In this document: one piece after another, positions 319 to 25,751 of the stretch
How the letters are laid out: the number at the start of each line of letters is the position of its first letter
Position numbering within the stretch: position 1 is the first letter of the stretch
Assembly (NCBI GenBank): GCA_030605245.1
Contig: JAUWIS010000001.1
Location: 1 to 26,357, forward strand
Origin: Methanobacteriota archaeon
GTDB taxonomy: Archaea > Thermoplasmatota > JASEFT01 > JAUWIS01
Direction: 5' to 3'
DNA: 26,357 bases
Notes under the pieces: model-generated
Database searches by the model: none
Seen by the model: only the letters and a program-made list of their open reading frames with translations
Told to the model about the DNA's origin: nothing
Made by a program: the position numbers and the translations under genes

Positions 319-1019
319 ATGATACAACAAAGACTGAAACCGTTGAGCATTAAAAGGGAAAGACCAGATTATCCACAGGTCAATTATGTAGATGATCGAG
401 GAGTCCAATGGATAGAACTCAATAGAGGATGTAAGCGGTTATGTCGTTTTTGTTGGGCTGATCCAAACTATAAGGTTTTTGATATTCCAAGGATAATTCG
501 GAATAAAGTCCAGATTATTGGAGAAAATGTAATGTTTGATCCTAATATTGAAAAGAAATTAAAGAAGCTTTCAGAAATAAAAGTCAATAACAAAGTAGTC
601 TATTATGGTCTGGGAAATGGATTCGATTATCGGCGTGTTACTCCAGAAATTGCCAAACTTGCAAGAGCTGCAAGGATAGGCAATATTAATAATAAAGGCA
701 ATTGGTACAAAGGAGTTAATCTTGCTTGGGATTTAGGGATAAATCAAGAGTATAAAGTTAAGAAAGCATTAAATTATTTTCTGAATGTTGGATATTATGC
801 CAACAGATCTAAAATATTTATACTGGTAAACTGGGAGATAACACTAAAAGAATGCCTGTATAAGTTTGAGAAGATCAAGGCAATGGGGCTAAGATAGATG
901 ATTGTACTTGGGAATGTACAAAAAGAAATTATATTCCTCTATATTGGGATTATCCAGAATATCGTAAGTTTAGGCATATGTGTAGAACACATAATATTAC
1001 ATTTAAGGGTAAACAATGA
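319..1019 (+). pseudogene. Radical SAM protein split by a -1 frameshift near 885-897
   Basis: CxxxCxxC motif (RGCKRLCRFC). Frame 1 stops at 897. The -1 frame continues KIDDCTWECTKRNYIPLYWDYPEYRKFRHMCRTHNYTFKGKQ* to TGA 1017-1019, overlapping the next ATG (ATGA). Confidence 0.75.
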
Positions 1020-1669
1020 GAGCTACAATATACGGTAGAGTATCAAAAGACGATAAGGAACAAGATCCTGAAAGACAATTTATCAAATGTAGAGATTATT
1101 GCAAACTACATGAACATGATGTGATGGGAGAATTTAAAGATTATATAACTGGCGACAGTACACCTTATGCAAGGGATGCGTTTTCTAAGATGATGGAATT
1201 AAAGCCAGAAGTTGTTATTGTATTCAGCATTGACAGGTTAAGCCGGCAACATCCAAACAAGATAATGTCATTATTAACTCAATTCAAAGATTCAGGTATA
1301 ATCATAGTTTCTATAACTGAAACACTTTTTAACATGGAATCGCCGTTTGCTGAACCATTACAATATTTTCTTACATGGTGGAATAACTATTTTTTAAAAA
1401 AACTCAAGGAAGATATTAAGTCCGGCATGGATAAAGCAAAACTCAATGGTGTACACATAGGCAGACCAAAATGTAAGTTCAATGAATACAGAGCATATCA
1501 ACTATTAATTATAGAAAAGAAGTCATTATCAGAGATAAGTAAGATACTTCAAGTTTCCAGGTCAACATTACACCGTTTCAAAAGGGTAGTGATAAAAAAC
1601 CCTAATTTATTTAAAAAACAACACCCTATCCCAAAACCAGATGGTTTTGGAACGAATAGAGAAAAATAA
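1016..1669 (+). CDS. Small serine recombinase (resolvase/invertase family) with C-terminal HTH
   Basis: N-terminal YGRVS catalytic motif, DRLSR motif, IKSGMDKAKLNGVHIGRP helix E, and C-terminal SLSEISKILQVSRSTLHR HTH. Confidence 0.93.
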   Translation: MRATIYGRVSKDDKEQDPERQFIKCRDYCKLHEHDVMGEFKDYITGDSTPYARDAFSKMMELKPEVVIVFSIDRLSRQHPNKIMSLLTQFKDSGIIIVSITETLFNMESPFAEPLQYFLTWWNNYFLKKLKEDIKSGMDKAKLNGVHIGRPKCKFNEYRAYQLLIIEKKSLSEISKILQVSRSTLHRFKRVVIKNPNLFKKQHPIPKPDGFGTNREK

Positions 1670-6769: not shown

Positions 6770-8534
6770 TTCCTTTACCCCCACCAATCCATCCGAGCCG
6801 TACCAGGAACCCAAACATAAGTCCCAGGAACCACATAGCAGTGATAAAGCTCATTATTAATATGATTGCTGTGTAAAATGCAGCCATGCTTGGCAACAGC
6901 ATTGAATCGCCCATCTCTGCCAGGTGTTGCACTATATTAGCGACTATCACCAGGAGCCAGCCAGACACAATCCAGACAAGATATTTCATGATAGGTATTT
7001 CCTGACCGTTAGCATCTTTGAAAAAGAAAAACTCAAGCCTATCAGCCAACTTCAACAGTACAAAGATAACACCAAGTATCAATAACCCCATAGTAAGATA
7101 AAGATTATTTTCTGTTGGGATTGTGCAAGGTTCATGAGTTGACACGTTATAAGGTGCTTGATTGATATCACAATCCGAGCTTAAATTAGTGAGAGCGCAA
7201 CATGACGCATAATTCCTGTCAGTGTACCCACGCTCTCTTGAGAATGCTGTACCGTTCCATGCACAAACTGATAATGAGGGGATAATATCTTGTGTGCAAT
7301 AGTTGCAGCTTAACCATGTACCATTATCACCAGGCACATAATCATGTGTACCGCAATTATGCGCATCTGTATAATACTTTTGATATGAATTGTTCACCAT
7401 GCACGGTGTATACTGTACTATCCAATCCTCTGTACAACCTTCATTGTATCCAATCTTCACACCAAGAAGCTGTGCGGTTTCGTTAAGGATTATTGTAGAA
7501 AACATTGATTTATACTGGAAATATCTGGCTGTGTAGTTGAATGTGAGTAGAGGGAAATTGAACGGGTTAAATGTACTATTTGTGCAATCGCTTATGTTAC
7601 AAGCTCTGACACTAATATTCAGTTTAGCAACGCCTCTATGATACATATTTTCAATGTCTTGCTGCTCTAAAACCTTATGAAATATAAAAGCCTCATCAAT
7701 TGTGCCATTTAATGGTACTATACCAAAAGTAAATAACACACCAAGTTTAGTATTATTGACAGTTGATTTTGTAAGTACACCACTATCCACATCATTTTGC
7801 AATATACCATTCACATAAAGTTGCATATGTGTGCCATTGTAAACACAAACAGCATGATACCATTCATCCTGTACAGGGACAAGATTAGAACTTGTATAAA
7901 CACCAAACCCCCATCCACAAGATACATTTTCAGTTGTACCAGCTTGTAGATTATAACCGTCAGGAATTCCTTGCATTCTTGAAATGATCCCTGCATTACT
8001 ATTAACACTGTTAAGTTTGAACCATGCACCATAAGACACGTAATCAACAAAGTCCATTGGCGTACTTTCAACAATATCAACATATCTAAAAAAAGTACCA
8101 TCAAACCCAAGCCCTGTCTTAATCACTCCTGGTTCTGAATAATATCCAGCGTTGTATGTACCGTTATTGTTTGAACCAGAATAATCCTGTATCACACCTG
8201 AACTCTCATCCAAGTGCATGAGAAGCACATTATCACTCATATTAACAGCATAAGGATCTATTATGTCCTGGCTTTGATAATTTGGTAATTCTCTTCCATA
8301 TATGCTACTGTTCCAGGTCATATTAAGCCATTGCGTACTGCTTTTATTACTGTCGTATATCTGGCTATAGTATTCACCTGTCCAGTATGTCTTATTAAGT
8401 TGAACATACCCTCCAAGGTTCAATGACGTGTTAAAGTAAGTGCCATTGAATGCAATACCACTTGTACTAAAATAATCAGCATTCACATTACATAAAACTA
8501 AAACAAAAATAAAAAAGAGTATATAGTTTCTCAT
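6762..8534 (-). CDS. LamG / concanavalin-A-like domain adhesin with Cys-rich region and C-terminal TMs
   Basis: LLMHLDE, WYHAVCVYNGTHMQLYVNG and GTIDEAFIF LamG motifs; signal peptide; about 20 sequons; three C-terminal TMs. Confidence 0.88.
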   Translation of the reverse strand: MRNYILFFIFVLVLCNVNADYFSTSGIAFNGTYFNTSLNLGGYVQLNKTYWTGEYYSQIYDSNKSSTQWLNMTWNSSIYGRELPNYQSQDIIDPYAVNMSDNVLLMHLDESSGVIQDYSGSNNNGTYNAGYYSEPGVIKTGLGFDGTFFRYVDIVESTPMDFVDYVSYGAWFKLNSVNSNAGIISRMQGIPDGYNLQAGTTENVSCGWGFGVYTSSNLVPVQDEWYHAVCVYNGTHMQLYVNGILQNDVDSGVLTKSTVNNTKLGVLFTFGIVPLNGTIDEAFIFHKVLEQQDIENMYHRGVAKLNISVRACNISDCTNSTFNPFNFPLLTFNYTARYFQYKSMFSTIILNETAQLLGVKIGYNEGCTEDWIVQYTPCMVNNSYQKYYTDAHNCGTHDYVPGDNGTWLSCNYCTQDIIPSLSVCAWNGTAFSRERGYTDRNYASCCALTNLSSDCDINQAPYNVSTHEPCTIPTENNLYLTMGLLILGVIFVLLKLADRLEFFFFKDANGQEIPIMKYLVWIVSGWLLVIVANIVQHLAEMGDSMLLPSMAAFYTAIILIMSFITAMWFLGLMFGFLVRLGWIGGGKGNE

Positions 8535-8641: not shown

Positions 8642-11600
8642 TTAAAATCCCTCCATTACAGCTCTACCTCTTATGAATCCCGTTTCTAGTTGTTTTTCAA
8701 AGACACTTTTCCCACGTTTGAACTTGCGTAAGCTTGTTCTAGTAAATATGTTCAGACCTTTTGGTGTTCTTTGTTTTCCAACGATTGGTCGTTCTTCAAG
8801 ACCTGTAAGTTTCCCTAGAGGTTTCTCCCCATGTATTCCAAAAGTCATAGCAGCGATTGACGGTTGATATTTTCTGATATGTTTACCTGCCGGGGCTTTT
8901 GTTTTCCTTGCACCTTTCGAGAATCCACCAGGCATCCAGCCACCTAAGAAAAAAGGGGGGGGAGGGGGGAGGGGTGGAGGGGGGATAAACGGTGTTGTTG
9001 GCACATACCCACCAGGCATTGTATACTTGGTTTTTCCTCTTGTTCCAACCTTAGTAATAGCTGTTTGTGCTGTTACTTGTTCAAATTTGTACTGTTGCAT
9101 TGCCGGCGCAAACTGAAACATCATATAAGGTTTATGCTGTGAAACATAACGCATCCTTGAGATAGGTGCTATACGTGTAATGGGTACAACCTTACGTGTG
9201 GTTGCGGCGAAAGATTCAGCCACAGACATAGCAGCAACACTAACCAGGGGCATTGGGTACGTTGTTCTGAGAGAAAAGGATGATGATATAAGAGAAGCAA
9301 TAGGTGAGGGTGCTATCTGTTGAATATTTATGTGTTGTGAAACCATAGGATGATGTTTTGTGATTTGGGTACGTTGCAACATCAAAGAACCTTTTTTTCC
9401 CACACTTTCCATGATATACTTATCAAACCGTTGTTTAATTGTCAGTTTTTTCCTGAATATAAAGAGAGATCTTGTTGCATGGGTAGCTCCTGTCTGAAAT
9501 GTGGCTATATCAACTTTATATGGGCTTTTCATGTGTAGAGTGGTAGCACCTTTATACTTGTAGAACTTTTGACCTTTAATTACGTGTAGTTTTCTCATCT
9601 GGATAGTGGTGCCTTCCATCACATGTTTATATTTCTGGATATGTCTGACTTTTCCAGAAGCAGTATACGCTTTTGTAATATATTTTAGATTAACTCCTGG
9701 GACTTTCTGGAATTTACCAGTCATACCTTTCATTTCCCAGTAACGCTTCATGACTTTGCTTGATAGTAGCCTACCTTTAAGATGTATAACACCAGTATCA
9801 AAAACACGCTCAATGGTGCCAGCCATAGGGATTGTATGTTTGACTCTAGTTAACACAGTATGTTTTGGCAACTTTTTGCCTAAAATGTGCTTATAGCCGG
9901 TCTTGAACAGTTTATATTGTGGAACTTTGAACGTGTGACGTGTAATTGTGTCTATATGCGCTCTTGTAAGCCTGGAATATAACACAGGCACTCCTTTCTG
10001 GCTAACAATAGTTACAATATCACCATGATACACACCTTTAATCTCTTTGACAGATTTAAATTTCCAGGTTTTACCAATCTTAACTAGAGGTTTCACATGC
10101 CGGCTGAACGCTGTTCCCTTCGGTGCCTGGAGTATCTCACGTTGCACACCTTTTATTTTGCCTTTAGTATAAAATTGTTGACCTTTCTGAATAATAGTGC
10201 CTTTCATAGCGATTCCTCTTTGGATTACTCTCGGCTGGATAAACTTCTTACCACGAAATATGTTAAGAAGTTTTGGTGTATGGATAACAGCGTATGACTC
10301 AGCTTTCCCAAACTCAACAGCTTTTTTCCCTGGCACTTTCTGTCTTAAGTGGTAGGTCTTAGTGTAGACTTTGGTATGTTTTTTGATAAACATGGATTTT
10401 GCTATCGGAAAAGCCATCGCAGCAGCAATGATGTATGTACTTGGTCGTTTATATATTTCAAGTGCTGCTGGCAACGTTCTTTTAAATTCAGATCTGACAA
10501 GCGCTTGTGTAGTAGGTTCATACCTTCCAACAATACCTATTGTTTTGACTTTCGTGATTGCAGCAGCCGGAAATTCAGTAACTAAATAAGGAATATTGCC
10601 ACCAAACCTTACAATGTCCTGGTATACACCAAGTTTCGATGTTGCCGGCGGTTTCCAGGTCACAACCCCGCCAAATGTTGCCGCTTTTTCAACCTGTTTC
10701 CTTAAAGGCGCCCACCGTTCAGCACTTTCACGTTCCAGCTTTTGCCATTTCACAATAGCGGATTCTTTCTGTGACCTTAAAGCTCTATACTTCTCTTTAA
10801 CAGGCACTTCATACCCGAACTCTTTTTCATAAGCTATAGCCTTTTTTTCATAAGCTCTGGCAATAGCCCAATCTTTACTGGCTGCTATCTCAGTTGTTCC
10901 CATCGTTGTCTGGAATATTCCACCCATTGGTATAACACCTGTCATTTGTGCGAGAACAGAAGCTTTGGCAGCCGGCGAAACAAATGTATAAGCTTTACTT
11001 TGTAACATAGGTCTTGTAGTGGAAACTATCGCCGGCACAACAAGCATATCTTTCTTAGGTTTATCTGGCATCAAGAAAGGGGCGATTGGTTTACCTTTCG
11101 CTCTCCATTCTTCTCTGAATTTTTGAGCTATGCCAGCTTGCACCCCAGCCAAGACTTCTTTTTCATACCCTTTCAACACCGGCACTTGAGAATAACCTAC
11201 CTTGACAGCTAGCCTTGCCTGTTCTTGGACTTGTTCGGGTGTAATTTCGCCAAGATACATAAAACCCCCTTCCCTGACACCAGGCTTTAAGACTGTACCT
11301 TTAACATCTTCCTCATAAGCTGCAAACACAGCAGCAGCTTTTGGCGTTATGTATGTTGTTGCAACTGTCTGTTTTCGTGGTTCAGTGTCAATTGTGCCTG
11401 GAGGAGCAGCGTAAACATACTCTCGTACTTCTTTTTGTTTAACTGTTTCTCGTTTAAGATGTTGCTCATATATCTTTTGTTTAATTCCTGATCTGAGTTG
11501 TTCATAATTGACAATCTTCTCAGCCCATTCAGGTCTTGCTTCTTTAATTTGCGCTTTGGTTAGAGTTGGTTCTTTAACTTGGCGTGTGACTATTTCAGGT

Positions 11601-11851: not shown

Positions 11852-11985
11852 TTAAATATATTCTATGACATAACTTATATTTATTATTTTATGAACTGGT
11901 TAACCATGTTTAATATATAGTGTTAACATAATCTTATATAATAATTACACCTTAACATTCATACTGAACTATGGAGGTACAGCGA
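11852..11985. promoter_or_regulatory. Divergent AT-rich promoter region with two GTTAAC-centred palindromes and a Shine-Dalgarno site
   Basis: TATA-like TTTAATATATAG (11909-11920), TGGTTAACCA (11897-11906), TGTTAACA (11921-11928) and GGAGGT (11973-11978). Confidence 0.55.
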
Positions 11986-12255
11986 ATGAGGAACAAAAAA
12001 GGTTACAGACTTCAAGACCTTCTTCCTGTCGCTATAATCTTTGTGGTTGCAACAATTGCTATATCTATTGGCGCAGACATTCTGAGTGGTGTACGTGACG
12101 GTCAAACGGTCGACACAGCATCCTACAATGTAAGCACCTATGGATTGCAAGGTATGCTGGAACTGGGTTCCTGGGTGCCAACGCTGGCTCTTGTCGTGGC
12201 TGCTGCGATTGTGATCGGCGTATTGGTCTACAGCTTTGCATTTGGTCGTAACTGA
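11986..12255 (+). CDS. Putative major capsid protein of spindle-shaped-virus type (two hydrophobic helices) with class III signal peptide
   Basis: MRNKKG|YRLQD, hydrophobic helix 1, loop with NVS sequon, helix 2 SWVPTLALVVAAAIVIGVLVYSF. It has a strong SD and its own transcription unit. Confidence 0.7.
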   Translation: MRNKKGYRLQDLLPVAIIFVVATIAISIGADILSGVRDGQTVDTASYNVSTYGLQGMLELGSWVPTLALVVAAAIVIGVLVYSFAFGRN

Positions 12256-12294: not shown

Positions 12295-12474
12295 TTAATC
12301 AACCTTTTTTTTCACTAAATTAAACAACTCTATATTTAGGATGAAAATTCCAAGGACTGAATACAACATAATGTCTGAATAAATATCAATCCCTTGACAG
12401 TAACAAAAATTTACCGTACAAACCACCAATAACATGAATAAAGTATATAAATAATATTTATTTTTTATATTCAT
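12295..12474 (-). CDS. Small two-TM membrane protein
   Basis: ATG 12474 follows AAGGAGGA; two hydrophobic segments. Confidence 0.6.
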   Translation of the reverse strand: MNIKNKYYLYTLFMLLVVCTVNFCYCQGIDIYSDIMLYSVLGIFILNIELFNLVKKKVD

Positions 12475-12481
12475 TTTCGTT

Positions 12482-12503
12482 TCCTCCTTAGTCATTCAAA
12501 GAC
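12482..12503. repeat. 22-bp direct repeat, copy 1
   Basis: TCCTCCTTAGTCATTCAAAGAC is identical to 13489-13510; on the minus strand it contains TGA and the SD AAGGAGGA. Confidence 0.95.
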
Positions 12504-12633
12504 TGCTGTTTATAATCCAACGGCTTGGTCTTTTCGCATTTATAGTACAACCTGGGTTTTCATGATATGGTTTTCCATACATGATTATTAAATCATCCTC
12601 TCTAATTTCCTTTTTACAATGAGTACATTTCAT
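12496..12633 (-). CDS. 45-aa LIM-like zinc-finger microprotein
   Basis: MKCTHCKKEIREDDLIIMYGKPYHENPGC: CxxC...HxxxxC. Confidence 0.65.
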   Translation of the reverse strand: MKCTHCKKEIREDDLIIMYGKPYHENPGCTINAKRPSRWIINSSL

Positions 12634-12835
12634 CATCAAAATCCAACCTTTCAACGCCTTTAACTTTCATTTCTTTCAAATATTTATCAATATCACCAAA
12701 TTTAGATATGAGTTCATCCTCTGCAACTTGACAAATAATCCTACCATGAACAATATATAACAAACTCTGTCGATGAGTTTTACATATTGTTCTACCAGTT
12801 CTTAATAATACAAATTCACATGGTATCTTAATCAT
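12614..12835 (-). CDS. Hypothetical 73-aa protein
   Basis: ORF track; starts just after junction motif copy 1 with AGGA upstream. Confidence 0.6.
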   Translation of the reverse strand: MIKIPCEFVLLRTGRTICKTHRQSLLYIVHGRIICQVAEDELISKFGDIDKYLKEMKVKGVERLDFDDEMYSL

Positions 12836-12846
12836 CTTATCCTCGC

Positions 12847-12868
12847 AAACGGCGGTTTATTGCCGAAC
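12847..12868 (-). repeat. 22-bp gene-junction motif, copy 1
   Basis: Minus strand GTTCGGCAATAAACCGCCGTTT; encodes VRQ-stop of the upstream gene. Confidence 0.95.
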
Positions 12869-13051
12869 CTCTTTTACATTGTGTACAAACTCTATATAAT
12901 CAGCCAATTCTCTCATCATCTTCGGAGTTAAAAGTATTGTTTCTTCATCATTTAAATCGTTGATATTTTGTGCAACTATCTCTATCGCACCCTTCCATAT
13001 TTTCGGTGACACTTTGTTTCCAAAGCCATCATCATATATCTTCATTCTCAT
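12857..13051 (-). CDS. Hypothetical 64-aa protein (between motif copies 2 and 1)
   Basis: ORF track; ends EVRQ* inside the motif. Confidence 0.65.
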   Translation of the reverse strand: MRMKIYDDGFGNKVSPKIWKGAIEIVAQNINDLNDEETILLTPKMMRELADYIEFVHNVKEVRQ

Positions 13052-13055
13052 TCAC

Positions 13056-13077
13056 AAACGGCGGTCTATTGCCGAAC
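13056..13077 (-). repeat. 22-bp gene-junction motif, copy 2
   Basis: Minus strand GTTCGGCAATAGACCGCCGTTT; encodes VRQ-stop. Confidence 0.95.
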
Positions 13078-13314
13078 AGCTTTACATCTCCACGATTCAT
13101 TCAATAATTTATACTCTTCGTCCGAGGTTGAATACGAATTTTCTCCAATAGATGTCTTTACGTAACATCTTATCAAATCAGCATGATTACAATCTTCAAT
13201 ATAATCATCACATCCAAAATCTACACAACTTCCTTGTGGTACACATTCAACAGTACCAACAGGACTGATACATCCTGTTAATAACAAAAATCCGACTAAA
13301 ATCATTATTTTCAT
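13066..13314 (-). CDS. Cys-rich putative lipoprotein
   Basis: MKIMILVGFLLLTG|C lipobox-like signal, six further Cys, strong SD AGGAGGG; ends AVRQ*. Confidence 0.7.
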   Translation of the reverse strand: MKIMILVGFLLLTGCISPVGTVECVPQGSCVDFGCDDYIEDCNHADLIRCYVKTSIGENSYSTSDEEYKLLNESWRCKAVRQ

Positions 13315-13332
13315 TTTCCCTCCTTGATCAAT

Positions 13333-13354
13333 AAATGGCGGTCTATTGCCGAAC
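13333..13354 (-). repeat. 22-bp gene-junction motif, copy 3
   Basis: Minus strand GTTCGGCAATAGACCGCCATTT, 1 nt after the TAA of ORF 13356-13481. Confidence 0.95.
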
Positions 13355-13355
13355 C

Positions 13356-13481
13356 TTATTTTCTCTGCATGATTTCATATTTCTTATCAAAGTCTTTATC
13401 TACAATTGCAAGACAATTTCCTTCTTTATATATGAAATCAATATTTGCTCTTTTTGCTTCCACAATTTTTAATATTCTCAT
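13356..13481 (-). CDS. Hypothetical 41-aa protein
   Basis: MRILKIVEAKRANIDFIY...MQRK*; SD AAGGAGGA supplied by the 22-bp direct repeat. Confidence 0.6.
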   Translation of the reverse strand: MRILKIVEAKRANIDFIYKEGNCLAIVDKDFDKKYEIMQRK

Positions 13482-13488
13482 TTTTGTA

Positions 13489-13510
13489 TCCTCCTTAGTC
13501 ATTCAAAGAC
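13489..13510. repeat. 22-bp direct repeat, copy 2
   Basis: Identical to 12482-12503. Confidence 0.95.
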
Positions 13511-13574
13511 GGCACTCTCTGTCAATGCATCTCAGCACCACATTTTGGACATATTTTTGGTATCTTAGCCATCC

Positions 13575-13724
13575 TTAAACCTCAATCCTATTTTCTTTCC
13601 ATGTGTATAGTAAAGATTCTTTCTCCTGATAACTCATAGATTCCCATTCTGCTATATCTGGCAACTCATTAGCTTTCAACATCTTTACTATTAATTTAGA
13701 CCATTCTCCTGGATGTAACATCAT
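13575..13724 (-). CDS. Hypothetical 49-aa protein
   Basis: MMLHPGEWSKLIVKMLKANELP...; ATGA overlap with the upstream ORF. Confidence 0.5.
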   Translation of the reverse strand: MMLHPGEWSKLIVKMLKANELPDIAEWESMSYQEKESLLYTWKENRIEV

Positions 13725-13822
13725 TTTGGAACCTTATTTTCCTTCTTCTTCTTGCAGTCACACCATTGCTGACCACATTTCTTACAAGGCTGTAAAGAGC
13801 CTCCATGTATCTTATTTGTCAT
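13721..13822 (-). CDS. 33-aa Cys-rich microprotein
   Basis: QPCKKCGQQWCDC; coupled to the next gene. Confidence 0.5.
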   Translation of the reverse strand: MTNKIHGGSLQPCKKCGQQWCDCKKKKENKVPK

Positions 13823-13834
13823 TTTGAAACCTTT

Positions 13835-13987
13835 TTAATAATTTGATTCATAACAAACATCTTTTTCATCCCATAACATCTTTTTAAGACATTTTGAGCA
13901 AAAGATTCTTTGATAATCATCGCCAGCTGGCGAAATAATTATACACGCTGATTCTCCAATTTCTTTACATCCTTTGAAATCACACAT
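13835..13987 (-). CDS. 50-aa zinc-finger-like microprotein
   Basis: MCDFKGC...IFCSKC. Confidence 0.55.
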   Translation of the reverse strand: MCDFKGCKEIGESACIIISPAGDDYQRIFCSKCLKKMLWDEKDVCYESNY

Positions 13988-13999
13988 CTTTCCATCCAA

Positions 14000-14140
14000 T
14001 TAATCAACATCTTTAATATCAATCTGTCGACATTCAAGACCGTCTGTATCAATATTATCACAGATAATTTTAAACATCTTAAAAAGTTCATCTAAATCCT
14101 CTTGCTCTCTTTCCTCTGGTACTGTTATTAGTATGTCCAT
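14000..14140 (-). CDS. 46-aa acidic hypothetical protein
   Basis: MDILITVPEEREQEDLDELF...; SD GGAGGG. Confidence 0.55.
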   Translation of the reverse strand: MDILITVPEEREQEDLDELFKMFKIICDNIDTDGLECRQIDIKDVD

Positions 14141-14185
14141 CGTTTCCCTCCATATTTTCGGTGTCACTTTGTTTCCAAGCCATTA

Positions 14186-14383
14186 TCAATCCACCCATAC
14201 AAAGACAATGTTATGCAACTTGATTTTATATTTTTTAGAACATAAGAAGTTACCACGTTTCAATTTTCTTATATCTCTTGCCACGCTTGCTTCGCTTACA
14301 TTCAGTTCTTTTGCCAGTTGTCGGGTAGTATACTTTTTCCCTTTATTCTCTGTTAAAATATCAAATATTTCCTGTTGCCCCAT
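14186..14383 (-). CDS. Winged-helix HTH DNA-binding protein
   Basis: IFDILTENKGKKYTTRQLAKELNVSEASVARDIRKLKRG. Confidence 0.85.
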   Translation of the reverse strand: MGQQEIFDILTENKGKKYTTRQLAKELNVSEASVARDIRKLKRGNFLCSKKYKIKLHNIVFVWVD

Positions 14384-14526
14384 TTTCCTTTACCTTTACC
14401 TTTACCAACATGTTTCTCTTTAAAGTCCAAGAGCAATCTTATGGTAACATATACTATGAATCCAGCAGCGCCAAGAAGTAAACCCCATTTAATAAATGGG
14501 AACACAATTTCACCTGTGGGTGGCAT
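14353..14526 (-). CDS. 57-aa single-TM protein with GK repeat
   Basis: Hydrophobic WGLLLGAAGFIVYVTIRLLL followed by GKGKGKGK, encoded by (GGTAAA)3. Confidence 0.55.
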   Translation of the reverse strand: MPPTGEIVFPFIKWGLLLGAAGFIVYVTIRLLLDFKEKHVGKGKGKGKWGNRKYLIF

Positions 14527-14527
14527 C

Positions 14528-14731
14528 TTACATCACCGCCAGCTTATAAGCAACAACGATTATTATTGCAGTCATTAAGAACCCAAGCCCTACAGCTGCA
14601 TAAACTTTTTGAACTTCATGCCTTAATTTATCCTGGCTCATTTCCAGACTGTTCAAACCCATCCATAGCCTTGACAGTCGCTTCTTATGTATACCTAACT
14701 CAATTATCATTGCTTTTTTGTCATAGTTCAT
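14528..14731 (-). CDS. Small coiled-coil protein with C-terminal TM
   Basis: ORF track; heptad-like region followed by AAVGLGFLMTAIIIVVAY. Confidence 0.6.
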   Translation of the reverse strand: MNYDKKAMIIELGIHKKRLSRLWMGLNSLEMSQDKLRHEVQKVYAAVGLGFLMTAIIIVVAYKLAVM

Positions 14732-14896
14732 CTTTAATCTCCTCCAATCTTTCTAAGCTAATCTTAAGCCATCTAAGCCACTTTATAGTGTTCAGGCTCA
14801 CAACCTATCCTTAAATCTGCTTTCTCTTGTTATTATATGCTTCTTCTGCTTGCTTGTCACGTTCTGAATCATATGTTTGGTCTATTTTGTCTGATT

Positions 14897-15190
14897 TCAT
14901 CCTAACCTCATCTTGTATAAGCATGATATGTAACATCTTTCTCTAGTGTAATATCCTTTTTCAAACTTTAATGAGATATTGCTATACACTCTTTCATGGC
15001 GACAATCAATCTTATCTAATTTGTCAAAACCATGACTTGCACATATTACCTCTGCTTGTCGTTGTAGTTCTTCTTTATCTTCAATGTTGTGTGGTCTGAT
15101 TTCAAGGAGATAATAAGTTGTAACCATTGTAATCATGAATGTTAATGTGATTGCAATAACAAGGTAACTAAAATAATAATCTTTTTCCAT
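14897..15190 (-). CDS. N-terminally anchored Cys-containing membrane protein
   Basis: Likely start ATG 15190 (TAATG overlap); TM followed by ICASHG...CYISC. Confidence 0.6.
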   Translation of the reverse strand: MEKDYYFSYLVIAITLTFMITMVTTYYLLEIRPHNIEDKEELQRQAEVICASHGFDKLDKIDCRHERVYSNISLKFEKGYYTRERCYISCLYKMRLG

Positions 15191-15393
15191 TATCTTTGCC
15201 TCATATATTTCTGTTTTTTCCTGTAAAGCACTACTTGCCTCAGACAATAGTCCACAGCCAGAGCTTCCCGCATCCCTTCCCGTTTCTCGTTCAGGAAAGT
15301 ATCTAGTGTCCTGAAATAATCCATAGACTTGTCATACTTCTTAACTTCCTCTTCTGTGAGTTGATCCAAACCAAGACATCTTGTCAGTGTCAT
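15190..15393 (-). CDS. Hypothetical 67-aa protein
   Basis: ORF track; coupled to the downstream gene. Confidence 0.55.
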   Translation of the reverse strand: MTLTRCLGLDQLTEEEVKKYDKSMDYFRTLDTFLNEKREGMREALAVDYCLRQVVLYRKKQKYMRQR

Positions 15394-15523
15394 TTTTCGT
15401 ATATTTCTCCTATCCCTATCCGTTTTCTTAATTTGTATGTGTTCAATCCTTGACCTGTATTATCCCCTTCCTTATCTAACTCGTCAATAATCTTTTTTAG
15501 TTCTGGCTTACATTTATCACAGA

Positions 15524-15679
15524 TCATTCTGACACCGTTCTATAAGTGACATTTTCTTTTGGATATGAATCTTCAAGCCATGCCCCATAATATTTAGCAT
15601 CATACTCAATAAAAAATACAGCTTGTAGTTCTTCCATCTTGAAAACACCAAACTTTAACTTTTTTATTTCTTCATTCAT
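15524..15679 (-). CDS. Hypothetical 51-aa protein, first gene of the leftward operon
   Basis: MNEEIKKLKFGVFK...; AAGGGGG upstream. Confidence 0.5.
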   Translation of the reverse strand: MNEEIKKLKFGVFKMEELQAVFFIEYDAKYYGAWLEDSYPKENVTYRTVSE

Positions 15680-15689
15680 TCTCTTAACC

Positions 15690-15801
15690 CCCTTCTGATA
15701 AATATAAACATAAACATAGAGATATACAATAGATATATAAAGATTGTTATAATGAACAATATAAATATATAAATATAAATTCAGAATACAGATTATTCAA
15801 G
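15690..15801. promoter_or_regulatory. Very AT-rich divergent promoter region / possible origin flank
   Basis: Gene strand switches here; several TATATAAA/TATAAAT motifs. Confidence 0.55.
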
Positions 15802-15939
15802 ATGGAACCAATAACAATCAAAGCAAATATATGGAAAACAGGATCAAGCAATGTCGTGACTATCCCTAATAGATATATCTTAGATGGAATAATTGACAAG
15901 GATAAGCCTCTCACAATCATACTTCAAGAGCAGAATTAA
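15802..15939 (+). CDS. 45-aa AbrB/MazE/SpoVT-like DNA-binding protein (not in ORF track)
   Basis: MEPITIKANIWKTGSSNVVTIPNRYILDGII..LTIIL; the KTGxSxVVTIP pattern is typical of swapped-hairpin regulators. Confidence 0.7.
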   Translation: MEPITIKANIWKTGSSNVVTIPNRYILDGIIDKDKPLTIILQEQN

Positions 15940-16337: not shown

Positions 16338-16363
16338 AAAAAAGAGCAAAAAACCAAGATAAA

Positions 16364-16685
16364 AAAGGGTTGCAAAATGATAGACAGGTTTTGACACGGA
16401 AAGGGTTGTAAAAAAATCAAGCTAGCGTTGTTGGCTTCACACGGAAAAGGTTGCAAAAAAAATGAAAAGGTTGCAAAAGTGGTAAAAAAAGGGTTGCAAG
16501 TTAGGGGGGGAAATAACAAACTAACCCAAACTGAGAAGCTTATTCTTGAGATGCTCAGTGAAGAATACCTGACAGTCAAACAGATAACTATAAGACGGAG
16601 ATGTACAACACAATCAATATATAAAATCATAAAACAGCTCAGAAAAAAAGGTGCAATTTCACGCAATTTCAAAAGGGTTGCAAAA
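16364..16685 (+). repeat. Six copies of AAA(G/A)GGTTG(C/T)AA(AA), iteron-like
   Basis: Copies start at 16364, 16400, 16445, 16465, 16488 and 16672. Confidence 0.8.
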
Positions 16686-23892: not shown

Positions 23893-24050
23893 TGCCAAAC
23901 TGTGAAGGGTGTAAGGAGAATCTGCAAATAGCTTATAATTGGCAGAAAATGGGTTATTGTGTGGCTACAAGTCCATCAAAACCTGAATGTTACCCATTCG
24001 GCAGGCACCATTATTCAGTCTGGATAGTAGACGATGAGGGGAGAGAATGA
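23889..24050 (+). CDS. 53-aa Cys-rich microprotein
   Basis: PNCEGC...YC...EC; ATGA coupling at both ends. Confidence 0.55.
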   Translation: MMPNCEGCKENLQIAYNWQKMGYCVATSPSKPECYPFGRHHYSVWIVDDEGRE

Positions 24051-24787
24051 CAGAGCTTGAATTTATTATAATGATAGTATTGATTTTCATGGTAATGCCT
24101 GTTTTAATGGTATTCTTGTTGATATGGTGGTTATGGAACAACCCTGTAAATGTTCAGATCAGCGAAAAAAAGGAAGGTGTATACTTAAGCAGCGGTGGCA
24201 AGTATAGGATTCGTGATGGTAAGCTGTACCCTATATGGAGCTTTTTCACAAAGATAAGCCGGCAATGGTTAGCTTATGATGTAATCATAAGCCATAAGAC
24301 TATCGAGAAAGCACCATTTAAGCTGTTTGGTGGTGTTTTCACCTTTGGCAAGTCAAAGACTATAAAGAAAGTGTACACTAAGCGATTGGCTGTAGATTAC
24401 GCAGATATCAAAGATTATCTGATAATCACTGAGGGGTTCCCGATAATCGGCGCAAAACTCACTCTCAAGCTTAAACGTGAAAAATCGCAACTTGTTCCCT
24501 GGCTGCCAAAGATAGAAGCTGACAGTAAAGGTGTGACAACAAATACAAGGATGGTCAAGATTGACAACTTACGAGAACAGCTATATGAAACAACCAAGAC
24601 ACCATTAAGCAAAAATGATATGATGCTTAAGGTTGTATTGCCTATGAGCTTAGTCTTGTTGGCTATTGTCCTTATCATATTTTTTCCAAAGATATACGAA
24701 GCAGTGATGGCAGGGAGCCAATCAGCCTTCGACCAAAGCAAGAGCGCCGTATTTGATTGGCTGCAACAAAACCCACCACAAGGTTAA
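24047..24787 (+). CDS. Two-TM membrane protein, paralog A
   Basis: N- and C-terminal TMs around a basic soluble domain. Confidence 0.8.
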   Translation: MTELEFIIMIVLIFMVMPVLMVFLLIWWLWNNPVNVQISEKKEGVYLSSGGKYRIRDGKLYPIWSFFTKISRQWLAYDVIISHKTIEKAPFKLFGGVFTFGKSKTIKKVYTKRLAVDYADIKDYLIITEGFPIIGAKLTLKLKREKSQLVPWLPKIEADSKGVTTNTRMVKIDNLREQLYETTKTPLSKNDMMLKVVLPMSLVLLAIVLIIFFPKIYEAVMAGSQSAFDQSKSAVFDWLQQNPPQG

Positions 24788-25091: not shown

Positions 25092-25751
25092 ATGGTAAAA
25101 GGAACAGATTATTTGGAAATGCTCAATTTCAAGAGTATAAATATCTTCGGTGCGACAGGTAATATAACATCAATCATAAACATATCTTTGTGGGTTTTAA
25201 TAATATCCGCTTTGATAGTCATGATTATCAAGTTCATATCACACAGAGTAATGGTTGAAATACTGGAGAAAGTTAAGGGGGGTTATGTTTCAAAGGGTGG
25301 CAGATACGCTGTAGTGTATGATAGAAAAAACGATTTGGCATACTTAAGACCAATGTGGGGAAAAGAGAGATTGCCAAACTTTCCAAGTGAAGCGTTCCAA
25401 AAAACCAAAGGTGTACCATTCATCGGCATTAAACGGGAACTTAGCCTTATAAAAGTCAACAAATACAGTTACAAGGCAAGCCTGCCGGAACCAGGCACAG
25501 CAAAGACAGGCTCTATAAAATACCATGATACACTGAGTTGGATGTTTCTTGAACAGCGCCGGAAATTCCTGAAAAAGATAAGTAAAGAAAACATCTACTA
25601 TGTTTTAATGGTTATGGCACCAATAATAGTAATCCTGGCAAGTATTGGTATGGTAAGCTGGGTTATTTATGTTCATGCCAGACTAGATGCAAACTATGCC
25701 GCATATCTAGGGGAACTATTGAAGATTGCACAAGGAGCGACAGGGAAATGA
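25092..25751 (+). CDS. Two-TM membrane protein, paralog B
   Basis: Same topology as 24047-24787, with a shared post-TM motif. Confidence 0.8.
   Translation: MVKGTDYLEMLNFKSINIFGATGNITSIINISLWVLIISALIVMIIKFISHRVMVEILEKVKGGYVSKGGRYAVVYDRKNDLAYLRPMWGKERLPNFPSEAFQKTKGVPFIGIKRELSLIKVNKYSYKASLPEPGTAKTGSIKYHDTLSWMFLEQRRKFLKKISKENIYYVLMVMAPIIVILASIGMVSWVIYVHARLDANYAAYLGELLKIAQGATGK

Follow-up and report, generated by a model that had tools for sequence, protein, structure and literature searches.

Three near-identical copies of a 22-bp sequence lie in a single orientation at the junctions between small genes of a virus-like archaeal genome. We propose, tentatively and with somewhat more doubt than confidence, that this motif is a short linker left by, and usable for, the recombination-driven gain and loss of single-gene modules. 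The turnover of the numerous small, unique genes in uncultivated archaeal viruses is poorly understood. If the proposal is true, such linkers would offer a testable mechanism for small-gene turnover in archaeal viruses, and a marker by which accessory modules, among them candidates for anti-defence or exclusion functions, could be found in virus genomes from metagenomes. The weight of the case is limited by the number of copies, three, and by their occurrence in one genome lineage.

The window, by which we mean the whole stretch of DNA that was analysed (26,357 nt), is a complete circular virus-like genome of 26,332 bp, since its first and last 25 nt are identical. The source sample was a cold-seep metagenome, and the virus contig was binned with a 1.03-Mb, 69%-complete MAG whose SSU rRNA fragment is archaeal. 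The host family and class comprise only 2 and 4 (species) genomes, respectively, none of which has a relative of the virus. The virus genes are laid out in two divergent sets with large structural-type proteins, and include two DNA methylases, one of them fused to a SNF2 helicase; no recognisable tailed-phage genes were found in the virus genome. Relatives are ranked below by the identity of one capsid-like protein, whose family has at least 766 representatives at E <= 0.001:

11971..12255, plus strand: 94-aa two-helix capsid-like protein with a conserved basic leader, N-K-K-G type

In a degenerate-pattern search of the 26-kb window, GTTCGGCAATARACCGCCRTTT matched exactly three times, with 0 mismatches and always on the minus strand, and the 22-bp motif had 0 matches in 100 dinucleotide-preserving shuffles of the window. 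The copies occupy three gene junctions in a row, at spacings of 209 and 277 bp and all inside 508 bp, which bears out what an earlier note on this DNA had described as three near-identical, oriented copies. The array genes around them run on the minus strand:

12847..12868, minus strand: motif copy A, GTTCGGCAATAAACCGCCGTTT; gives VRQ and a TAA stop to the 64-aa ORF
13056..13077, minus strand: motif copy B, ..TAG..CCGCCGTTT; gives VRQ and a TAG stop to the 82-aa ORF
13333..13354, minus strand: motif copy C, ..TAG..CCGCCATTT; preceded by the stop of the 48-aa ORF
12614..12835, minus strand: 73-aa ORF downstream of copy A
12857..13051, minus strand: 64-aa ORF, the sole ORF between copies B and A; its N-terminal patch also occurs in ORF 14000-14167
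13066..13314, minus strand: 82-aa ORF, alone between copies C and B; Cys-rich, with a lipoprotein-like N-terminus (…LLTGC) and no Pfam family
13356..13502, minus strand: 48-aa ORF that precedes copy C; repeat R2a (below) forms its start region

Any two motif copies are identical at 20-21 of the 22 positions, and their 40-nt flanks show 27-40% identity, the chance level at this composition. Because identity drops right outside the 22 nt, the motif is a sharply bounded repeat. It faces the same way as transcription at all three copies.

The intervals between copies are 187 and 255 nt long and hold one ORF each, as the earlier note had stated; an independent gene call on a second assembly of the genome (L064) gives the same ORFs. 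CRISPR arrays have repeats of 24-40 nt and similar, short, gene-free spacers, and a CRISPR array was rejected on these interval lengths and the ORF within each. The 82-aa and 64-aa proteins are unrelated (Smith-Waterman z = 1.7 against shuffles), as are the proteins on either side of the motif copies (z <= 1.7), and the two genes have a common GTT-CGG-CAA-TAR end (VRQ-stop) inside the motif. The claim that the motif fixes the C-termini of the genes before it therefore stands for two genes, not three: the 48-aa ORF ends at a TAA 1 base ahead of copy C, in a different frame. Since two copies are read in the VRQ-stop frame and the third lies in another frame after a stop, conservation of the motif acts at the nucleotide, not the protein, level. 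On the downstream side, copy A is followed by an 11-nt spacer containing GAGGA and then the ATG of the 73-aa ORF, copy B by two ATGs of the 64-aa ORF, the first at 4 nt and the second at 10 nt, and copy C by an 18-nt spacer containing AAGGAGGG and then the ATG of the 82-aa ORF.

The motif lies in a virus-specific accessory array of small genes, since relatives share nothing convincing with this region and the 64-aa protein has no homologue but itself among 5.8 billion proteins. By capsid-like protein the relatives are 59-91% identical, and include:

L065: capsid-like protein 78% identical; 23.6-kb contig
L066-L071: capsid-like protein 69% identical
L072: capsid-like protein 61% identical; closed 18.9-kb circle
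L087: capsid-like protein 59% identical; has a resolvase

Relatives carrying the capsid-like protein have structural and core genes in common with the window. In tblastx comparisons with L065, L067 and L072 it was the structural and core genes that matched, with nothing convincing in 12295-15920; the contigs obtained for the closest capsid-like homologues (70-91% identical) are too short to reach an array. Two tandem paralogues of the capsid-like protein occur in L065, L072 and L087, and one occurs here.

Sharp identical patches, one unrelated ORF per interval, a stop carried in one frame and a next start close by, all in a region whose gene content only this virus has, make up an anatomy that recombination at a short common linker produces. 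We infer that recombination at the repeat made the arrangement and that no dedicated enzyme was needed. A module would consist of a gene and its linker, 277 or 209 bp in length, and would be joined in by recombination at the 22-mer; this recombination would be of the ordinary homologous or short-homology kind, with related genomes or small circular intermediates as partners. If a gene-plus-linker unit enters at a resident linker, direct copies would come to flank the gene, and the same direct copies would then permit precise deletion or re-assortment of modules. The linker, which has a stop in one frame (CAA-TAR) and itself lies 4-18 nt before the next start, would terminate the joined gene and keep the downstream start region intact; with the stop codon built into the linker, unrelated proteins would have the same VRQ ending.

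Repeats at ORFan junctions are already known in phages, and it is the compact, stop-codon-bearing form in an uncultivated archaeal virus that is new. T4-type phages carry about 50 PeSL (promoter-early stem-loop) cassettes per genome, each combining a sigma-70 promoter with a stable hairpin as terminator; recombination between PeSL copies explains the insertion, deletion and replacement of single genes, as well as mini-circles (Arbiol et al. 2010, PMC2839356). Like our motif, PeSLs are short repeats at the junctions of small ORFan genes in a hyperplastic or hypervariable part of the genome, and span the upstream stop on one side while preceding the next Shine-Dalgarno sequence and start on the other. 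Unlike PeSLs, the motif has no TATA-like box or stable hairpin, belongs to a virus of an archaeal host and is present in three copies, and neither a recombinant nor a mini-circle was seen here (contigs of ~7x; L064 colinear). By analogy, the motif would perhaps work like a PeSL, a suggestion that we hold with some reserve; it is not one, as the promoter and terminator hairpin are missing. In the tandem lpl cluster of Staphylococcus aureus, a short conserved block amid variable sequence has been proposed as a homologous-recombination site that shuffles modules (Tsuru and Kobayashi 2008, PMC2568036). Both cases present a short, highly conserved nucleotide block with variable flanks in a tandem array, but the lpl genes are paralogous, with the block inside the ORF, and are known from more than 10 genomes, whereas here the genes are unrelated, the block lies at the junction and a single lineage carries it.

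The earlier note had named variable gene content among relatives and precise motif-to-motif deletions as checks on its proposal of a cassette exchange site. L064, the only other copy of the genome and the only close relative, is 99.92% identical to the window and colinear with it, with 16 substitutions, 0 of them in the motif. No motif-to-motif joints were found in the Logan contigs of run X1, which have ~7x depth, too little to reveal rare rearrangements, and come from an assembler that drops rare variants; X1 is the only run holding most of the virus, and a second run, from the same study, has ~5% of the words that were sampled. Of the exchange-site claim, the sharp edges, the single orientation, the unrelated single ORFs and the array genes without homologues in relatives stand, and exchange was not observed. 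Exchange itself is thus plausible but unproven, the case being limited to cassette-like anatomy with no recombinant among the available sequences. As a separate observation, the terminal 31 nt of L064 (20791-20821) are absent from the window and the MAG, with divergence at window position 17/18; this end may come from the tip of an assembly or represent a variant or a junction.

What also speaks against the linker reading is that, in the searched collections and among relatives, no genome other than this lineage carries the motif, so that a common pool of linker-bearing viruses would be hypothetical. When IMG/VR, JGI metagenome contigs and GTDB genome contigs were scanned for the exact pattern, there were only single chance matches per contig, and neither blastn nor tblastx linked any of these contigs to the window. 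Across 400 genomes of the host's phylum, scanned at <= 3 mismatches, there were 4 single matches, all unrelated, against 6 for a reversed control pattern. The rest of the host MAG contained no further motif copy and no short match to the virus, a phage collection gave no DNA match to the array, and IMG/VR held no relatives by the capsid-like protein, its alignment or the 306-aa ATPase-like protein. Relatives of the virus had no motif copy at <= 6-7 mismatches, and by the earlier note's own reckoning this absence counts against its cassette claim.

Another way to account for the motif is as an oriented DNA site, an operator or roadblock resembling a stoperator, at which a small dimeric viral protein would bind a GGC-N8-GCC pseudo-dyad. 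All 22 positions are conserved despite the differing reading frame, every copy is oriented with transcription, the half-sites are about one helical turn apart on direct reading, and the same array has a winged-helix gene whose product, should the motif be an operator, would be a candidate to bind it:

14186..14383, minus strand: 65-aa winged-helix protein (HTH_11, E = 4e-8)

We consider such a site unlikely, and likewise unlikely that binding at successive junctions tunes or blocks read-through into distal accessory genes. There are just three copies in 0.5 kb, and no copy at <= 8 mismatches lies at 15.7-16.5 kb, the main divergent regulatory region and the expected place for an operator. The CGGC-N8-GCCG dyad described earlier is present in copies A and B, but copy C has GCCA instead; the dyad is weak, with arms of 4 bp only, and the non-dyad positions are conserved to the same degree as the dyad positions. 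The motif is also absent from relatives that have the same core genes. The stoperators of cluster A mycobacteriophages (L5, Bxb1) are 13-bp sites, 20-30 genome-wide and with early-promoter operators among them, that are bound by the immunity repressor (PMC6550527, PMC9283540). Like the motif they are short asymmetric sites oriented with transcription, between genes rather than in promoters, but the motif is 22 bp long, has its three copies in 0.5 kb with none at the regulatory region, and has at most a candidate binder; the comparison with L5 stoperators made in the earlier note fails on number and distribution. As an observation on the divergent region, 16363-16685, which takes in the start of a 313-aa ORF, contains five to six same-orientation GAAAAGGTTGCAAAA-like 15-mers that look like iterons or operators.

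A promoter in the A-rich centre of the motif was considered and set aside. The only A/T-rich stretch is AATAAA/AATAGA, with G+C on both sides when read directly, and from the sequence it is unlike the virus's own TTTATATA-type TATA boxes; boxes of this kind are found in the evident promoter regions of the virus, upstream of the capsid-like gene and at the array head. The host MAG has only 7 tRNA genes, and the comparison was with the virus's own promoter boxes, not a host consensus.

The motif could instead be a neutral remnant, left when a rapidly evolving array underwent a few duplications or short-patch conversions, recent and local, and have no role in signalling or recombination. When the whole genome was compared with itself, three families of dispersed short repeats, and no more, were significant; all are direct and confined to 12471-14178. 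They are the motif (R1) and two others, whose clustering with it counts for the linker reading:

13478..13510, minus strand: repeat R2a; junction, Shine-Dalgarno sequence and first codons, 94% identical to R2b over 33 nt
12471..12503, minus strand: repeat R2b, partner of R2a, 1007 bp apart
12994..13023, minus strand: repeat R3b, within the N-terminal coding part of the 64-aa ORF; 97% identical to R3a over 30 nt
14149..14178, minus strand: repeat R3a, at the start of ORF 14000-14167

R2a and R2b bracket all three motif copies, and the two R3-bearing ORFs, the 64-aa ORF and ORF 14000-14167, are otherwise barely alignable. All three families are sharp-edged, each being a high-identity patch common to sequences that otherwise align barely or not at all, and their divergence is similarly low (3-9%). 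This similarity would also be compatible with recent local duplications in a burst, and with three copies only, functional selection and recent origin cannot be told apart. The absence of the motif from relatives and its small number point the same way. We nevertheless judge a neutral origin quite unlikely: duplication should leave similarity in the flanks, but these are at chance level and the enclosed ORFs unrelated, and conversion tracts require flanking homology, of which there is none.

The position of the motif in the transcript, where it overlaps or abuts a stop, lies 4-18 nt ahead of the next start and always follows transcription, would suit an RNA signal in a polycistronic message, either a processing site or a translational-coupling element. 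In the latter case the CCGCC after the stop would be anti-Shine-Dalgarno-like, and a ribosome that terminates there could make the following start accessible; CCGCC/CCGUC does pair imperfectly with GGAGG, and the R2a junction folds in this way at -13 kcal/mol. We regard an RNA signal, and this form of coupling with it, as distinctly improbable. Neither at 37 C nor at 10 C is the predicted folding of the junction RNAs stronger than that of shuffles (z from -1.4 to +1.0), and the motif's own hairpin (4-bp stem, 8-nt loop; disrupted in copy C) does not exceed shuffles in stability (z 0.1 to 1.0). The predicted RNA structures vary among copies, the motif has no Rfam match, copy B is without a clear Shine-Dalgarno sequence to sequester, and the distance to the start codon varies. 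The earlier note's alternative of an operator or RNA-processing signal found no support: significant RNA structure is missing, the divergent regulatory region is without a copy, and the dyad is weak and broken in copy C.

Crossover sites of small serine recombinases, such as res and hix, consist of two inverted half-sites of ~12 bp around a 2-bp centre. The virus encodes one such enzyme, and a weakly related site lies behind its gene:

1016..1669, plus strand: small serine recombinase (Resolvase N-terminal domain, E = 9e-20); Pfam scans recognised no other recombinase in the genome
1735..1761, plus strand: hybrid site weakly related to the motif, 66 nt past the recombinase stop codon

On this account the 22-mer would be the crossover site of the recombinase, with excision or integration between direct copies, or inversion against 1735-1761. 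The variable base of TAA/TAG falls in the central dinucleotide of the 22-mer on direct reading, and L087, which also has a resolvase, carries a 9/10 match to CCGTCTTTGA just after the resolvase gene. We nonetheless find this very improbable. Direct reading gives poor symmetry, with 5/11 half-site positions matching; the direct repeats are far apart, unlike res subsites, and are without the inverted pairing of invertases. The contigs of ~7x contain no joints, and L064 is colinear. The site at 1735-1761 has 3 mismatches to the 15-nt motif core, where 0.25 such matches are expected by chance, but as a 22-mer it has 8/22 mismatches, a level at which ~5 matches are expected by chance, and relaxed motif scans of the genome returned chance-level extra matches only. 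This site and the stretch immediately upstream of R2a have the 12-mer GCCGTCTTTGAA in common without a mismatch, and it points to its own downstream small ORF, as the other copies do, so its 'inverted' orientation follows from the direction of transcription there. Directly ahead of this site, downstream of the recombinase gene at 1713-1737 on the plus strand, GTCAATTC ... GAATTGAC form an inverted repeat whose 8-bp arms match perfectly across a 9-nt spacer.

Integron attC sites are imperfect palindromes of 57-141 nt that carry paired R and L boxes; IntI, a tyrosine recombinase encoded beside the array, recombines them in folded single-stranded form. The array here resembles an integron in having one promoterless ORF per unit, a repeat at the unit end and unrelated genes in tandem and in the same orientation, but the 22-mer has 4-bp arms and no significant fold, and the one recombinase of the genome, encoded 11 kb off, is of the serine type. 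Integron-like gene capture by a serine enzyme in an archaeal virus, with the degenerate site beside the recombinase gene as the resident copy, would seem highly improbable.

Repeated junction sequences as such are a habit of this virus group, because relatives carry different repeats of their own, and this counts for the linker reading. L072 has a 23-mer, AATAAGGAGAGCCTTTGAGAATG, in three copies at small-gene junctions (14693-14715, 14839-14861 and 15310-15332), and L087 has a 21-mer, CAGGGGATGGTGAAAAATGAA, in two copies in its small-gene array (8201-8221 and 8351-8371). Both repeats hold a Shine-Dalgarno sequence and start codon, and that of L072 also holds the upstream stop. A wider junction family common to these relatives was considered but found no support: when the relatives' sites were scored with a profile built from the six sites of the window, they did not stand out from shuffles, a result that also weighs against a recombinase site. 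CCGTCTTTGA is found exactly in L072, and its likeness across viruses may be taken as a lead only.

Several further features of the relatives and of the window deserve mention. On the minus strands of L072 (~15385-15440) and L087 (~8950-8995), which are distantly related viruses, a stretch of ~40 nt is almost identical, with a G-run/C-run hairpin followed by TTTTATATTTAAAT; from its sequence it looks like a terminator and then a TATA box, and the portions of the window that were read showed no counterpart. Among contigs with an identical capsid protein (P0165) we considered cassette exchange and rejected it, as the variation is an integration junction: L066 (~5323) diverges abruptly from L067 (2840) and L071 (5510) beyond the tyrosine integrase gene region, and the difference is probably that between the integrated and the free form of a related virus. 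In the window, 24047-24787 and 25092-25751 on the plus strand encode membrane proteins of 246 and 219 aa, each with an N-terminal and a C-terminal hydrophobic helix. The two have a common central motif and look like paralogues, and both are conserved in L067 and L072.
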